A stretch of DNA of 64,000 bases from Phoronis australis (GCA_002633005.1 NMRA01000067.1:923107-987106), one strand, 5' to 3'; shown: positions 33,263-39,689, counted from the first letter of the stretch. Notes: a model not told the origin generated them from the sequence alone. Program-made: numbers and translations.

Positions 33263-33516
33263 CAAGGTACCTAAACTACACGGTCAATGGACTCATCCGC
33301 TTCCTGGGTCAGCTGACATCACCATTTTGTCCGTGACCCGTGTTTGGCGGTCCGTTAACCGTGTTTCCTCGGGAATATGAGTCTGTGTCCCGTGTATTTG
33401 GGTGCGTGGATCATGTTTTGTGAGTCAGTGGACGGTGTTTGCAGGTCCGTGAGTCGAGTTCATGCGTCCGTGCCCCGTGTTTATGAGCCCGTTGACCGTG
33501 TAGTTTAGGTACCTTG
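33263..33516. mobile_element. MITE with 25-bp perfect TIR and 5-bp TSD (hAT5-type)
   Basis: CAAGGTACCTAAACTACACGGTCAA / TTGACCGTGTAGTTTAGGTACCTTG; ATAAA on both sides; diverged relatives at 46416-46640 and ~48460-48634. Confidence 0.85.
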
Positions 33517-34016: not shown

Positions 34017-34259
34017 GTGGTGTGGTGTCTTAGACACAGGGTTAGATGTGTAGTTAGTGTAGCTTAGTGTAGTTAGTGCTTGCACTTTCTAGCTTTCAGC
34101 TTCTACGACCACCTAGTCCTCTGAGACGAATTAGGAAGGCATATATAAGACCCGCCTTGGTGGCTTTTAACTACCTCTAATCAAGACTCTTGCAGTACCT
34201 CCTCGTGGTACACCATGGTAACTGGGCACCTTGCTGCCCCAGGCTAAATTTTGCAAGGG
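34017..34259 (+). ncRNA. HDV-like self-cleaving ribozyme at the element 5' end
   Basis: P1 GTGGTGT(34017-23)/ACACCAT(34210-16) with G1-U wobble; P2 CTCTTGCAG(34187-95)/TTGCAAGGG(34251-59); P3 ACC/GGT with L3 TCCTCGT(34200-06); P1.1 CC(34201-02)/GG(34217-18); P4 CTGGGCA..TGCCCCAG; J4/2 GCTAA with candidate catalytic C34244; J1/2 about 160 nt. Confidence 0.88.
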
Positions 34260-34668
34260 ATCTCGGAAGAGGTTAGGCTCTTAAAGGTGCAACGTGCATG
34301 ACCCATCGGTGTATGGATATGCTCTGGCGTTCACCAACCTAACTCCCAGCTATGGGCAAATAGCACCCTTCATTGGTTGGGCTCAAGACTTACTACCTTG
34401 TCCCGTAAAATACTAGCTTTTTGTGGCTGAGCGGACGTGGTGCCTTTCAGATGCTCTCCACATCCCTGGCACTCAACGGTCAGAAGAACTGCAGGGAGCT
34501 GCAGGTGGAGCCGACCCCCCCATCAGAGTGGACGAAGTGTCTGTTGGATACCTTACTTGTCCTACGCACTCAACGTTCAGAAGGGCAGGAGACGACGGAT
34601 TGTCTTCTTGGTCAGGGGTCCGGGAGAGGTCACTCCCGGCTGCCACATTGTGTCAGTGAACATACCGG

Positions 34669-34907
34669 TGCGTGGCAGTTTACCGATTCTAAGCCATCAC
34701 CTCATCGGCGTCGGGTGGGCGTCAGGGGCCACGCATGACGGTGGGAGGGGTTCTTTAACCCTTATTGGTCAGTTGCCGCCCGCCTTAAGCCTGGCAGCCC
34801 CAGGCCAGTAGGGAACTGACCCGCCGCGGTTAGCCTGCCCCTTTGGGCGTAGGGGGCTTAGAGGTTGTTACAACCTCGACAGGCTTATCGTTACTCCATC
34901 GCCTGCT
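34669..34907 (+). promoter_or_regulatory. Dicistrovirus IGR-type IRES-like triple pseudoknot upstream of pol
   Basis: P1.1 TGCGTGGC(34669-76)/GCCACGCA(34728-35); PKII CGGCG(34706-10)/CGCCG(34822-26); PKIII GGTGGG(34740-45)/CCCGCC(34779-84); SL-IV GGGTT-CTTT-AACCC; stem GGTCAGTT/AACTGACC; SL-V GCCTGG-CAGCC-CCAGGC; domain 3 AGCCTG/CAGGCT with CCCCT-TTGGGCGT-AGGGG and SL-III GAGGTTG-TTA-CAACCTC; PKI GGGCG(34845-49)/CGCCT(34900-04); then in-frame GCT. Confidence 0.8.
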
Positions 34908-37900
34908 TCAAGACTTATTACAGAAGTAAACGTCCATACGGATGCTGGACGGCGCTACTGGGAAAGTGCAGCCGGACAGAACATCCGCCGTGGCGCCAGA
35001 AAGCGCGGACCTAGAAAGAAACGTAGAGGTAAAAGAGCTGGCAAACGAGCCCGTCAACTCAAGTACGAAAGACTTCAACTCAACCGTCTCAGGATTGGTT
35101 ACTGTAATATACGTGGCATACGGGGCAGCAAGCATATACTGGATAAAATCTGTGCGGGCTACGACATTCTCCTGTTTCAAGAAACCAAACTCAAAGACCT
35201 AACAGACTTTGAACTCGAAGGTTTCATTTTTCCTAGAGAGGGCATCACCAATGGCCTGGCGTACGCAATCAACAAACACAGCCACACCATGGTAGAGCTT
35301 GTGGATACTCACAGTTTCACTACCACTGACAGGCAACTACAGATTATAAGTATCACTGATCCTGGTTTCTGCGACCCATTCACACTAGTCAATCTGTATA
35401 TACGGGGAAACTCCTCCCCTAGTTGCGACCATTGGAATTTTCTTCACAATCTGCTTCACATCTATCCCGACATTCTCATTGTTGGTGACTTTAATGCTCG
35501 TCATTCCAGCTGGGATGTCTACGGTGTGAACCCAAATGGTAAAGGTCTCGCCGAATGCCTTCCAGAACTAGATTTATATATTCTCAACTCTGGTGAACCC
35601 ACTAGGATGGCTGAGAGACCGGGTGACAAGGACTCGTGCATTGACCTTGCTCTGTGCAGCGACAATCTTCGCGACCGTGCTAAGTGGCGCAGGAGTTGTC
35701 AAGCTGGAAGCGATCACTACTTGTGTGAAGTTCAACTACACCACCAATTAAAGGCTCCAGTAACGACTTACAAACGGCCCTACAATAATACCGAAGGGGA
35801 TAAAATCTGGAAATCAGTGTGCAGACACGCCAAAAGCTTACATAAGCACGTATGCCACCACAGGAAGCAGAACCCCCCTACTTGGTGGAATAAAGATGTT
35901 GACACTGCCTGGGCCAACAAGCGCTCCAAAGAGCGGGATTTTGATCGTGCACGTCAAAACTGCACACCGGAAGAGTTCACGGTCGTCAGAACAGCCAGAA
36001 ACAGGGCCACTGCCCTGTTCAAACGCTCAGCATCCGAGGCTGCCAATCGTCGATGGGATGAGCTTTGCAGCCGATCCAACTTGACAGCTACAGATTTCTG
36101 GCACTTCCATCGTAACATGGACAAGAGACGTGCTCCCCCCAGATCCATCCTACTGAATGCAAGCAACACCATTCTCAGGAATGACAGGGAACAGGGTGAG
36201 GCTTTTCTCCTGCGTTTCATCCAGCAAAGTGACCACAGTGATGAATCTGAAAGAAACCTCCTCATCCAACAACTAGATGGACTTTGCAAGACAGCTGAAC
36301 AGGACAGTCAATTCTCTGCAGCAGAGGTTGCGGAGGCTATCAAAACTTGCAAAGAGGGTGCCCCTGGCCCCGATGGCGTGAGAGTCCTGACACTCAAGTC
36401 TTTGCCTGACTTTCTGCTGGCCAAGCTTGTGAAGTCCTACAACGTCAGTTTGGCCACTGGAATCATCCCTCACATCTGGACAGATGCCTTCTTAATTCCT
36501 GTACCAAAACCTGGAAAAGACCATCGTGCACTCAAGGGATATCGCATCATAGTGATGCAGAACGTCATTGGAAAAATCCCTGAAAGGATCATGGCGCAAA
36601 GAATCACCAAGTTAATTGAACCCTGGCTCCTCCCAGGAATGGGTGCTTATCGACCTGGTAGAGATTCATGGGCCAACGCAGCTTCTGTTGCGGATGAGAT
36701 ATGGCAAGGTTTTGAAAACAAAGAAAACACTCTCCTCGTTGGCCTTGATCTAGAAGATGCGTACAATTCTGTTCAACTTCCAAAACTTGCGGATGGCATG
36801 CTTCATCTCGGTATTCCTGTACGATGCATTAGATGGGTGATGAGTGCCCTCAACAGCCGGCGATGCATGCTAAAACATCGTACATGGCGTTCAGAATGGG
36901 TATCTGTCAACACAGGCTTACCCCAAGGTTCACCTCTGTCCCCAGTGCTGTTCAATATCTACACCCTCCCACTCGCCAGACTGAACCGCGCTGACTGCCG
37001 ACTTCGCACCTTTGCAGACGACATGCTGCTGTCATCGCAAGGACAAACACATCATGAGATTCTCCACAAAGCACAGTCTTCATTGATAAAAATATGCGAG
37101 TTTTGTGCTACCAGCGGAATGAGCTGCAATGGAGACAAATGTGAAGCTCTCTTCTGTACTCTGGACAATCGCCTCAGTGTTGATGATTTCCCTTGCCCTA
37201 CCTACGATGGGAAGTTGATTGCTACATCTGACCACATGCGTCACTTGGGTGTAGAACTTGACCGCAGGCTCAACTTCACAACTCAAGTTAACAGTATGAT
37301 CAGCCGTGCCAACAGAGGAATCAATGCCCTTAGGGCTGCGGCTGGTCGGAAGGCGGAGGAAAGGCACCTCGTCATGCTTTATAAAGCCCTGGTCACTTCG
37401 ATCTTCGACTACGCTCTCCCCATGATCAACATCAGTAAAAATCAAATCAACAGACTTGAGAGGCTCCAGAACATTGGTCTTCGCGTCATCACTGGATGTA
37501 CGAGAACTACGTCAGTCACAGCATTACGTTACCTTGTCGGTATTCCCAGCATTGCAGACAGACAATCCCTTCTACAAGGTATTACTGTAGCCAAGGCTGT
37601 TCAAAGCCCCTTCCATCCATTACACAGTCAAGTGAAGACTGCACTTGACAGGTGCGTGAACTCCGTCCCTGCAACAGAAACTTATGGACTTCGTCCTAGA
37701 CCTTTTCGCAATGCCTCCCACCAAAGACTTAGCAGGTGCTCGTGGACTGTCGCTGCTGTTAACGCAACCATGGGTCTCATCGGCGAACACATGATCGCGC
37801 AAGTTGCTGCTTGGCTGCCAGTACAAGAACTTGGTGAGGAACCGAATGTCATCATTGCTTTCAACAGGGAAGCTCGGGAATGGCCTCCTGGAGTAGCCCA

Positions 37901-38606
37901 AGCATTGTGCCGTCAGCAATGGCGTGATCTTGGCGGTATTAATGCCATCATTGTAGCAACTGATGGATCCTTCGATGGTGAAACTAATCGTGCGGGATGG
38001 GGCTATCAAATACGCTGTGCTAACAACGTCATTGCAGAAGGTAGTGGCTGCCACCATATATCCACAAGCAGTACGCGGATGGAGTTTGAGGCTATACAAC
38101 GAGCCCTAACCAAGCTGTCACTCCTAGACCTGGAGAATCACACCATTATCTTTGCCACCGATTCCATGGCAGTGTTGATGAAAGTTCAATCTGGAAACCT
38201 CCCAGCCAACTGGGGTGTCTTCCGATCACGCCACCCTCATCATGTGGTGATCTGGTCTTTCGTACCTGGCCACGCCGGTGTCTTGATTAATGAGCGTGCA
38301 GATTACCTCGCTGGCTCATGCACCACCAACCAACCCCTCTACTTATATTCGGCTGACGTTAAGCTGCTGGCTCGCAAACGCAACCACGAGCAGACTGCAT
38401 CCCAGCTGGCTGAGTTCAATGATGGCAGCCGCCTGCTCGAAGCCGGTATTATTTATGGCCATGCTGCGAAGAGTCACAAGAAGGGCCGTGCCCAAGTGCT
38501 ATCTAATCATATGCTTACAGGCAACGTCAGCCCTGGAGTTCTGCGCCTTCTGCTGTCACGGGGATGGTCTGGGGAGGGGATTAATGCACCAGCATATCCC
38601 CAATGA
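34905..38606 (+). CDS. Retrotransposon pol: APE endonuclease, reverse transcriptase, RNase H; 1233 aa if initiated at non-AUG GCT 34905 (ORF track starts at internal ATG 35289)
   Basis: Frame is open from 34812 with no ATG before 35289. The upstream part encodes APE N-terminal motifs RIGYCNIRG and DILLFQET. Downstream: VGDFNARH, CIDL, GSDH (APE); LDLEDAYNSV, GLPQGSPLSPVLFNIY, FADD, HLGVELDRRL (RT); ATDGS, MEFEAI, TDS, VPGHAGVLINERAD (RNase H). Exact start is inferred from the IRES model. Confidence 0.92.
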   Translation, partial: ASRLITEVNVHTDAGRRYWESAAGQNIRRGARKRGPRKKRRGKRAGKRARQLKYERLQLNRLRIGYCNIRGIRGSKHILDKICAGYDILLFQETKLKDLTDFELEGFIFPREGITNGLAYAINKHSHTMVELVDTHSFTTTDRQLQIISITDPGFCDPFTLVNLYIRGNSSPSCDHWNFLHNLLHIYPDILIVGDFNARHSSWDVYGVNPNGKGLAECLPELDLYILNSGEPTRMAERPGDKDSCIDLALCSDNLRDRAKWRRSCQAGSDHYLCEVQLHHQLKAPVTTYKRPYNNTEGDKIWKSVCRHAKSLHKHVCHHRKQNPPTWWNKDVDTAWANKRSKERDFDRARQNCTPEEFTVVRTARNRATALFKRSASEAANRRWDELCSRSNLTATDFWHFHRNMDKRRAPPRSILLNASNTILRNDREQGEAFLLRFIQQSDHSDESERNLLIQQLDGLCKTAEQDSQFSAAEVAEAIKTCKEGAPGPDGVRVLTLKSLPDFLLAKLVKSYNVSLATGIIPHIWTDAFLIPVPKPGKDHRALKGYRIIVMQNVIGKIPERIMAQRITKLIEPWLLPGMGAYRPGRDSWANAASVADEIWQGFENKENTLLVGLDLEDAYNSVQLPKLADGMLHLGIPVRCIRWVMSALNSRRCMLKHRTWRSEWVSVNTGLPQGSPLSPVLFNIYTLPLARLNRADCRLRTFADDMLLSSQGQTHHEILHKAQSSLIKICEFCATSGMSCNGDKCEALFCTLDNRLSVDDFPCPTYDGKLIATSDHMRHLGVELDRRLNFTTQVNSMISRANRGINALRAAAGRKAEERHLVMLYKALVTSIFDYALPMINISKNQINRLERLQNIGLRVITGCTRTTSVTALRYLVGIPSIADRQSLLQGITVAKAVQSPFHPLHSQVKTALDRCVNSVPATETYGLRPRPFRNASHQRLSRCSWTVAAVNATMGLIGEHMIAQVAAWLPVQELGEEPNVIIAFNREAREWPPGVAQALCRQQWRDLGGINAIIVATDGSFDGETNRAGWGYQIRCANNVIAEGSGCHHISTSSTRMEFEAIQRALTKLSLLDLENHTIIFATDSMAVLMKVQSGNLPANWGVFRSRHPHHVVIWSFVPGHAGVLINERADYLAGSCTTNQPLYLYSADVKLLARKRNHEQTASQLAEFNDGSRLLEAGIIYGHAAKSHKKGRAQVLSNHMLTGNVSPGVLRLLLSRGWSGEGINAPAYPQ

Positions 38607-38607
38607 T

Positions 38608-38644
38608 CCTGTCCGTGACAGGTATTACAGGTATTACAGGTATT
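38608..38644 (+). repeat. Retrotransposon 3' end: CCTGTC-CGT-GACAGG hairpin plus (ACAGGTATT)x3 tail
   Basis: Begins one nucleotide after the TGA stop; three 9-bp units at 38618-38644 abut the TSD. Confidence 0.85.
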
Positions 38645-39348: not shown

Positions 39349-39689
39349 ATGAATGCCGCTATATTGCGGTGCATGATTCCCGCTTGTCCAAACTATGAAG
39401 CTGCGAAGAAAGCGGGTATATCATTTTTTCAACTTCCTCGAGAGCCCGAAATGCTTAGGAAGTGGCTCGCGATAGTGAAGAATGAAAGGTACGCTGTTTA
39501 AATAGCAAGTATGAGGCCGTGAAACATCTCCATGTCTGTGGCCGGCATTTTGTCCCCAACAGTGATTTCTCTGATGAATTCCAGCTTACCAAAGAACTAT
39601 CCATACGTTCCGTTACCTGTGCATGTTCACAGCGCCAGTCTCTAGTATTTCTTGATCAGTGTATTCCGGTTCGAACTGATAGCCTGTGA
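39349..39689 (+). pseudogene. THAP zinc-finger coding remnant (DNA-transposon derived)
   Basis: RCMIPACPNYEAAKKAGISFFQLPREPEMLRKWLAIV, then after a frameshift KHLHVCGRHF...DQCIP: C2CH THAP signature with conserved P, W and F. Confidence 0.75.

Follow-up and report, generated by a model that had tools for sequence, protein, structure and literature searches.

The stretch of DNA analysed here, hereafter the window, comprises 64,000 nucleotides (nt) of one strand of the Phoronis australis genome (GCA_002633005.1 NMRA01000067.1:923107-987106) and holds a long interspersed nuclear element (LINE), a non-long-terminal-repeat (non-LTR) retrotransposon that has only one open reading frame (ORF). This ORF lacks a conventional start codon, and the leader directly before it has a predicted fold akin to that of the intergenic region (IGR) internal ribosome entry sites (IRESs) of dicistroviruses, which makes it likely that the element is translated by a route so far associated with RNA viruses.

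The 5' end of the LINE is tentatively placed at about 34017, as the contigs of four public runs (X1-X4, possibly the assembly's own source) cease to match upstream of that point. The LINE stretch itself is near-identical in these contigs, and the same runs also hold a few divergent contigs of low depth. The GC content of the element (~0.50-0.61) stands out against that of its flank (0.40). The frame open from 34812 to 38606 (1264 codons) is the sole long ORF in the window, and Pfam places the Exo_endo_phos, RVT_1 and RNase_H domains all within it; a self-comparison of the window found no second copy of the LINE. The principal features are the following, with APE and RT denoting the apurinic/apyrimidinic-type endonuclease and the reverse transcriptase:

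34017..38644, + strand: single-ORF non-LTR retrotransposon (LINE), delimited by Pfam domains, contig ends and the GC contrast
34669..34904, + strand: IGR-IRES-like leader of 236 nt with predicted domains 1 to 3, proposed from checked pairings, a structure descriptor and conservation in a metagenomic relative, L002
34809..34811, + strand: in-frame TAG stop within the leader, closing the ORF frame upstream
34905..34907, + strand: GCU (Ala), predicted first codon, in the ORF frame
34905..38606, + strand: predicted coding sequence with a basic N-terminal region, APE, RT and RNase H, ending in a TGA stop at 38604-06
38620..38644, + strand: 3' tail of tandem AGGTATTAC repeats, comprising two complete units plus a partial one

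The element terminates 14 nt past its stop codon, in this short AGGTATTAC tail. The earliest in-frame Met of the ORF falls inside the APE endonuclease domain, with no in-frame ATG before it, in keeping with the non-AUG initiation predicted in an earlier reading of the window (the sequence-only reading). Further, eight ATGs are present in 34017-34904, and none of the eight leads into the LINE ORF.

Predicted fold of the leader

The helices, pseudoknots (PKs) and stem-loops (SLs) of the leader, two of which (P1.1 and P2.2) were added in the present analysis, are as follows, where MFE denotes the minimum free energy:

34669..34735, + strand: predicted domain 1, from its pairing; P1.1 alone is stable in the centroid fold
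34669-76/34728-35, + strand: P1.1, 8 bp
34697-02/34713-18, + strand: possible P1.2, with apical loop CAUCGGCGUC
34706-10/34822-26, + strand: PKII, 5 bp, CGGCG/CGCCG, as paired in the sequence-only reading
34714-19/34820-25, + strand: rival to the PKII pairing, 6 bp, GGUGGG/CCCGCC
34740-45/34779-84, + strand: PKIII, 6 bp with one G-U, GGUGGG/CCCGCC
34746..34763, + strand: SLIV, 7-bp hairpin with loop CUUU
34767-74/34814-21, + strand: P2.2, continuous 8 bp, GGUCAGUU/AACUGACC, present in the MFE and centroid folds
34789..34805, + strand: SLV, 6-bp stem with an apical loop of exactly CAGCC, then C-AGUA
34830..34887, + strand: three-way junction of domain 3, the MFE fold being the proposed fold
34830-36/34881-87, + strand: P3.1, outer stem of domain 3
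34837-41/34853-57, + strand: P3.3, inner stem, with loop TTTGGGCGTAG (RNA UUUGGGCGUAG)
34845..34849, + strand: 5' strand of PKI, GGGCG, within the P3.3 loop
34861..34877, + strand: SLIII, 7-bp hairpin
34888..34899, + strand: variable linker of 12 nt preceding the 3' strand of PKI
34900..34904, + strand: 3' strand of PKI, CGCCU

All the pairings named in the sequence-only reading, that is PKII, PKIII, SLIV, SLV, domain 3, SLIII and PKI, are present where it had placed them. Its finer points hold as well: the CTTT loop of SLIV, the SLV loop that is exactly CAGCC and is followed by C-AGTA, and the GGGCG/CGCCT pair of PKI followed by GCT in frame with the 1264-codon pol ORF. P2.2 surrounds both the 3' strand of PKIII and SLV, and the leader as a whole has a GC content of 0.61. 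In domain 1, AGUUUACC at 34677-84 occupies the place of the L1.1a motif UGGUUACC of the viral type 6b IRESs, to which it matches at 6 of 8 positions by eye, and GUCAGGG lies 5' of the 3' strand of P1.1 (L1.1b of type 6b is UAAGGCUU). GGUGGG (34714-19 and 34740-45) and CCCGCC (34779-84 and 34820-25) are each present twice in the leader, and hence a single motif pair could account for PKII as well as PKIII.

Upstream, just one ORF of appreciable size has an ATG (34451-34738); it comprises 95 codons and matches no Pfam family. Its TGA overlaps the 3' strand of P1.1, a placement that resembles the end of ORF1 at the edge of the dicistrovirus IGR.

Comparison with viral type 6b IRESs and with a metagenomic relative

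In the available portions of a recent account of these elements, the type 6a and 6b IGR IRESs are characterized by three pseudoknots, a U-rich SLIV loop and a conserved CAGCC in SLV (Abaeva, Pestova, Hellen, 10.1101/2024.04.17.590008 / PMC13273307), to which type 6b adds an SLIII that protrudes from PKI, a P2.2 that is continuous, and L1.1 loops that are larger and contain UGGUUACC and UAAGGCUU (PMC13273307). Measured against that description, the Phoronis leader resembles type 6b, the Aparavirus type found in Taura syndrome virus and Israeli acute paralysis virus (IAPV). The likeness extends to the order of the three predicted domains, the U-rich SLIV and CAGCC SLV loops, the placement of the putative PKIII strands 5' of SLIV and 5' of SLV, the continuous P2.2, the P3.1/P3.3/SLIII arrangement, the pairing of UGGG with ..CCU beside a non-AUG GCU codon, and the variable linker before PKI. 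The two differ in setting, the candidate being part of a cellular LINE's 5' leader and the viral IRESs separating ORF1 from ORF2 in picorna-like RNA genomes. The candidate is also GC-rich where the viral IRESs are AU-rich, and its domain 1 loop of ~50 nt has just the 6/8 match to L1.1a mentioned above.

For comparison we used 23 natural type 6b stretches (L057-L079) fetched by motif from IMG/VR, of which 17 are distinct and complete and were aligned. GCAGCCC (a string that the fetch pattern itself required), GGG and CCUG are invariant across all 17, and in a hand alignment the candidate has all three. The SLIV motif of the real IRESs is CUAUUUAG; the candidate holds most of it and is similar, not identical. 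The order of elements in the set runs from the 5' strand of PKIII through SLIV, the 5' strand of P2.2, the 3' strand of PKIII, SLV and the 3' strand of P2.2 to the 3' strand of PKII, and continues with P3.1, P3.3 with its UGGG loop, SLIII, the closing strand of P3.1, a variable linker, ..CCU and the first codon. The same order is found in the candidate leader.

A structure descriptor that uses neither SLIII, domain 1, the reading frame nor conservation is satisfied by all 17 real type 6b IRESs and by the candidate leader, but not, on either strand, by any further 361-nt tile of the window. Among 300,000 dinucleotide-shuffled versions of the region, 61 satisfy it, which places the match above chance. 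An earlier descriptor, with which 1 of 200,000 shuffles qualifies, was dropped as a family test, since it had been fitted to the candidate and none of the 17 real IRESs conforms to it. With regard to folding energy, domain 3 alone has a z-score of -3.0, its MFE structure being identical to the proposed fold, and the part comprising P2.2 and SLV has a z-score of -2.1.

The chief evidence comes from L002. A metagenome scan with the N-terminal protein of the LINE returned at least 30 loci, and among the matches listed only L002 reaches the leader. Its protein is ~35-37% identical to that of the window LINE, and its contig breaks inside the leader just before SLIV, which places the 5' strand of PKIII and domain 1 outside its coverage. 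Over 100 nt (window 34760-34858) the two are 85% identical at the nucleotide level, and in a global alignment the most conserved 50-nt bin is 34785-34834 (0.82), as against 0.34-0.74 across 21 coding bins.

Where the two leaders differ, the changes track the structure, and those in SLIV, P3.1, P3.3 and SLIII are compensatory. The SLIV stem has changed wholly, from AGGGGUU/AACCCUU in the window to GGAUGGG/CCCAUCC in L002, with the hairpin retained and the loop U-rich in both (CUUU and AUUUU, respectively). From the window to L002, P3.3 has a C-G to U-A change and P3.1 has U-A to C-G and A-U to U-A changes, while SLIII is GAGGUUG/CAACCUC in the former and AGGGA/UCCCU in the latter. P2.2 has 7 bp in L002, and SLV retains the CAGCC loop and 5 bp of its stem, having lost the outermost pair. 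The linker before PKI differs in both sequence and length (12 nt in the window and 8 nt in L002). Unaltered, in turn, are the UGGGCG of the P3.3 loop, the PKI strands GGGCG and CGCCU, the 3' strand of PKIII, and the segments GCCGCCCGCC, GGGAACUGACC and UGGGCGUAG.

This conservation does not follow a peptide. A 1-nt indel after SLV puts the shared GGGAACUGACCC into different frames in the window LINE and L002, and the ORF frame of the leader holds one stop in the window and three in L002, the last of the latter lying just 7 codons ahead of the one next to PKI. As the shared bases of the leader are read in different frames, the constraint is one on the RNA rather than on an encoded product.

The position of the predicted start is likewise shared. 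In L002 the codon after CGCCU is GAA, which opens the frame of the conserved N-terminal peptide of the family. The Met of the AUG-using relatives P0007, P0022, P0029 and P0036 lies within ~4 alignment columns of Ala 34905, and the same columns hold the Glu of L002 and the Ala of the 'SPA' of P0003; the conserved basic N-terminal region comes next in the window LINE, in L002, in P0003 and in the AUG-using relatives. Judged by these comparisons of sequence, there is support for domains 2 and 3 being a conserved, covarying, type-6b-like structure situated exactly where the AUG-less LINE ORF must start.

Proposed initiation of the LINE ORF and its alternatives

Hence, we propose, with a probability that we put at roughly 0.7, that the leader drives IRES-type non-AUG initiation of the LINE ORF, dispensing with both a start codon and initiation factors. 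The IRES assignment of the sequence-only reading is supported as regards the architecture of domains 2 and 3, the compensatory changes in L002, the lack of an AUG and the alignment of the start, and it fares less well in the Rfam search and in domain 1 and PKII, as set out below. The steps of the mechanism are modelled on the published action of type 6a/6b IRESs, as given in the available part of PMC13273307. The leader would fold into three domains resembling those of a Taura/IAPV-type (type 6b) IGR IRES and would bind ribosomes directly, with domain 1 touching the 60S subunit's L1 stalk and PKI occupying the A site, where it would imitate a tRNA-mRNA pair. eEF2 would then shift PKI from the A site to the P site, and Ala-tRNA would decode the GCU at 34905 with no involvement of initiator tRNA, such that the protein would start with ASRLITEV. 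In this manner the LINE could be translated past a leader of ~890 nt with eight upstream AUGs, independently of the cap and of eIF2.

Whether the likeness also reflects ancestry is a separate question, and we consider the chances about even that the leader is a true relative of the dicistrovirus type 6b IRESs by common descent. Were that the case, the element would have acquired a viral IRES in the course of reverse transcription, or else elements of this kind would have been the source from which viruses obtained it.

A series of results weighs against the IRES reading. Folded without pseudoknots, the region as a whole is not unusually stable (MFE z-score -0.71), and in the MFE fold PKIII has a competitor in a nested CCC/GGG pairing. 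The helices and spacers of the candidate are longer than those of the viral IRESs, as seen in the 6-bp stem of SLV and the 8 nt after it. PKII is no better than chance, with 3554 of 5000 shuffles of the domain 1 loop yielding a duplex at least as long, and the rival pairing of 34714-19 with 34820-25 is likewise not above chance. Moreover, a covariance model of type 6b domain 1 (R2) finds nothing at the candidate. For domain 1 and PKII, the pairing claimed by the sequence-only reading exists, and statistical and comparative support for it does not. The best R2 matches in the window lie elsewhere and are AT-rich chance matches.

The search with the cripavirus model of Rfam that the sequence-only reading had suggested went against it, as RF00458 gave no match at E<=10 on either 2.5 kb or 271 nt. 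In a control, RF00458 detected 2 of 19 real type 6b loci (28.9 and 28.5 bits, with a gathering score of 44.5), and because it overlooks the other 17, its silence on the candidate is weak evidence. The type 6b IGR IRESs effectively lie outside the coverage of Rfam 15. A covariance model of the viral type 6b domains 2 and 3 (R1), searched over 65 kb, gave no full-length match at the candidate, and its local matches there are weak (E 0.53 and 1.7 over that length). Of these, the top match of R1, in the window and in L002, is SLV (9.5 bits, E 0.53), and the fourth-ranked in the 65 kb is domain 3 (7.6 bits, E 1.7); the two are collinear, with the three-way junction aligned to the viral consensus as proposed.

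Other searches for relatives of the leader gave the following. A search of viral contigs with the SLV 16-mer returned 24 loci, each alike over only ~17-21 nt, and these were set aside as chance matches. CAGCC hairpins in L008 and L012 fall within the ORF1 coding sequence of unrelated two-ORF elements. A 22-mer search of prokaryote genomes gave no matches, and a protein-based scan of these genomes gave only distant bacterial endonuclease relatives of 23-30% identity.

The comparative evidence has its own adverse points. The PKI and PKIII strands, as far as L002 covers them, are invariant between the window and L002, and the pseudoknots themselves therefore receive no support from covariation. 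A G>A change at 34823, which L002 shares with one divergent contig, breaks the PKII of the sequence-only reading unless compensated, and suits the rival pairing (U-G to U-A). Leader DNA was compared from two lineages only, and L002 is a decayed copy whose coding part carries a stop as well as a frameshift. Finally, a divergent low-depth contig from the same species covering 34733-34960 has 28 differences and 4 gaps, with several changes that break pairs; since it carries frameshifts, we read it as a dead copy that is uninformative on constraint.

Foremost among the alternatives is a different role for the leader, be it as a conserved structured RNA in ribonucleoprotein assembly, recognition by the element's own protein, stability or export, or as an internal DNA promoter; the start would then be near-cognate or otherwise cap-independent, and the IGR likeness convergent or partial. 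The lack of a significant full-length match to the viral IRES covariance models and the unsupported domain 1 and PKII are in keeping with this, as is the presence in both elements of near-cognate codons between the last stop and PKI. However, those codons are not homologous in position, the AUC at 34887 in the window being 6 codons and the AUU in L002 being 3 codons before the first codon. Further, constraint on a DNA promoter would not yield compensatory changes in stems, and a different role leaves unexplained why the conserved parts are the very ribosome-contact elements of type 6b, namely CAGCC, the U-rich loop and UGGG/CCU by an in-frame codon. On balance we regard this alternative as unlikely.

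A second alternative arises from P0015, a Joint Genome Institute (JGI) protein encoded by an L002-like copy on a 4248-nt contig, and adds to the points against the IRES reading. P0015 starts at an ATG equivalent to position 34735 of the window (the P1.1/S2.1 position), and its frame runs through the entire leader into APE, with W, Y and W in place of the three stops of L002. An in-frame upstream AUG in other copies was something that the sequence-only reading had regarded as telling against it, and it has in part been found, in this decayed copy. The leader might accordingly be coding, with translation beginning at this upstream AUG and the window and L002 copies having merely gained stops. 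The ATGAC at 34735-39 is retained, and the distance from GGUCAG to the first codon differs between the window and L002 by 6 nt, a multiple of three, as a coding leader would have it. Yet the ATG of the window is out of frame and its frame ends after 7 codons, the frame in question has three stops in L002 and one in the window, and 1-nt indels shift the frames such that the peptides are unrelated though the bases are ~80% identical. P0015 itself is decayed, with RKWGL in place of the conserved RKRGP, and it is the sole protein found to read through the leader (1 of 33 near-length candidates and 0 of 751 longer ones). Back-read from the protein, it has six visible differences from L002, and 5 of 6 structural positions are intact. 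An intact ORF of 1264 codons would also be improbable in a copy dead long enough to have lost its start. We thus hold a coding leader to be quite improbable, and treat P0015 as a caveat to, and not a refutation of, the IRES reading.

Least credible, and disfavoured, is a chance likeness, the copy being dead, its AUG lost and its leader GC-rich: the ordinary folding energy of the whole region, the frequency of single pseudoknots in shuffles, and a rate of ~2 in 10,000 per region, which over very many windows scanned would produce chance matches somewhere, are countered by the conservation and compensatory change in L002, by the site directly preceding an intact AUG-less ORF with the codon in frame in both elements, and by the agreement of the predicted start with the N-termini of relatives.

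Known systems and the surroundings of the element

Recombination has brought IGR-like IRESs into Tombusviridae and Marnaviridae and to the 5' ends of certain dicistrovirus-like genomes, according to the accessible sections of PMC13273307. These too lie outside the classical intergenic position, including in a 5' leader, but their hosts as given there are all RNA viruses, whereas here the host is a reverse-transcribing cellular element. That a LINE might use a dicistrovirus-type IRES has also been raised before, in a server-based prediction from 2016 that put 'cripavirus-like' IRESs into the spacer between ORF1 and ORF2 of vertebrate L1 elements (PMC5381506) and in a hypothetical sentence of a 2013 review, by which non-LTR elements might hold IGR IRESs (PMC3894237), both as they appear in the portions of these papers at hand. 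The L1 prediction, as presented in that portion, consists of three stem-loops, lacking the conserved loop motifs, the PKI/start-codon geometry and the comparative support of the present case, and the L1 ORF2s have AUGs. The literature searched, which was limited, yielded no account of a retrotransposon that carries an IGR-type IRES, in agreement with the view of the sequence-only reading that this was not a described retrotransposon feature.

Another comparison is with the HDV-like (hepatitis delta virus-like) ribozymes, which occur at the 5' ends of non-LTR elements of the R2, RTE and L1Tc types and have been linked to their processing and to AUG-independent translation. There, as is proposed for the Phoronis LINE, a structured 5' RNA serves an ORF without a conventional start; the ribozymes act by self-cleavage, in contrast to the tRNA mimicry proposed here. 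When the 5' end of the LINE was searched with Rfam, no HDV-like ribozyme fold emerged: the drz-agam-2-2 match at 34126-34257, upstream of the IRES-like part, is sub-threshold (13.9 bits where the gathering score is 38; E 1.4) and leaves P1 mostly outside the alignment.

Factorless initiation of the dicistrovirus type has so far been described for RNA viruses only. In the available text of the 2026 Nucleic Acids Research paper (PMC13273307), the viral IRESs are stated to be without sequence similarity to cellular mRNA elements and their origin is left open, with transposons going unmentioned in that text. Were the present reading correct, the Phoronis leader would be the first cellular counterpart of a viral IRES and would offer, through reverse transcription, a tangible path for such exchange. 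Given common descent, the simplest initiation device known in eukaryotes would have passed between RNA viruses and the retrotransposons of their hosts. The leader would also allow LINE translation independent of the cap, of scanning and of eIF2, and would change the annotation of AUG-less LINE ORFs, a consequence raised hypothetically in the 2013 review, as far as its available text goes (PMC3894237). Structural studies would gain from it a GC-rich version, robust in its structure, of a factorless IRES in wide use.

The surroundings of the LINE show further features. Just upstream of it, the segment 33900-33966 has a depth ~20-30 times that of its surroundings (419-770 vs ~22) in all four runs; it is a high-copy repeat that many different contigs link to other sequence. 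Farther upstream, 33328-33501 is an irregular array of 5-6 copies of ~17-36 nt units of the type GTCCGTG..CCGTGTT, and an extra copy of the 17-mer of this array is found at 38610-26, right after the stop codon of the LINE. Lastly, ~700 nt downstream of the element, a 50-codon ORF (39349-39498) corresponds to the first half of a THAP zinc-finger (PF05485, E 4.4e-7) and is probably exonic, belonging to a host gene or to one derived from a transposon.

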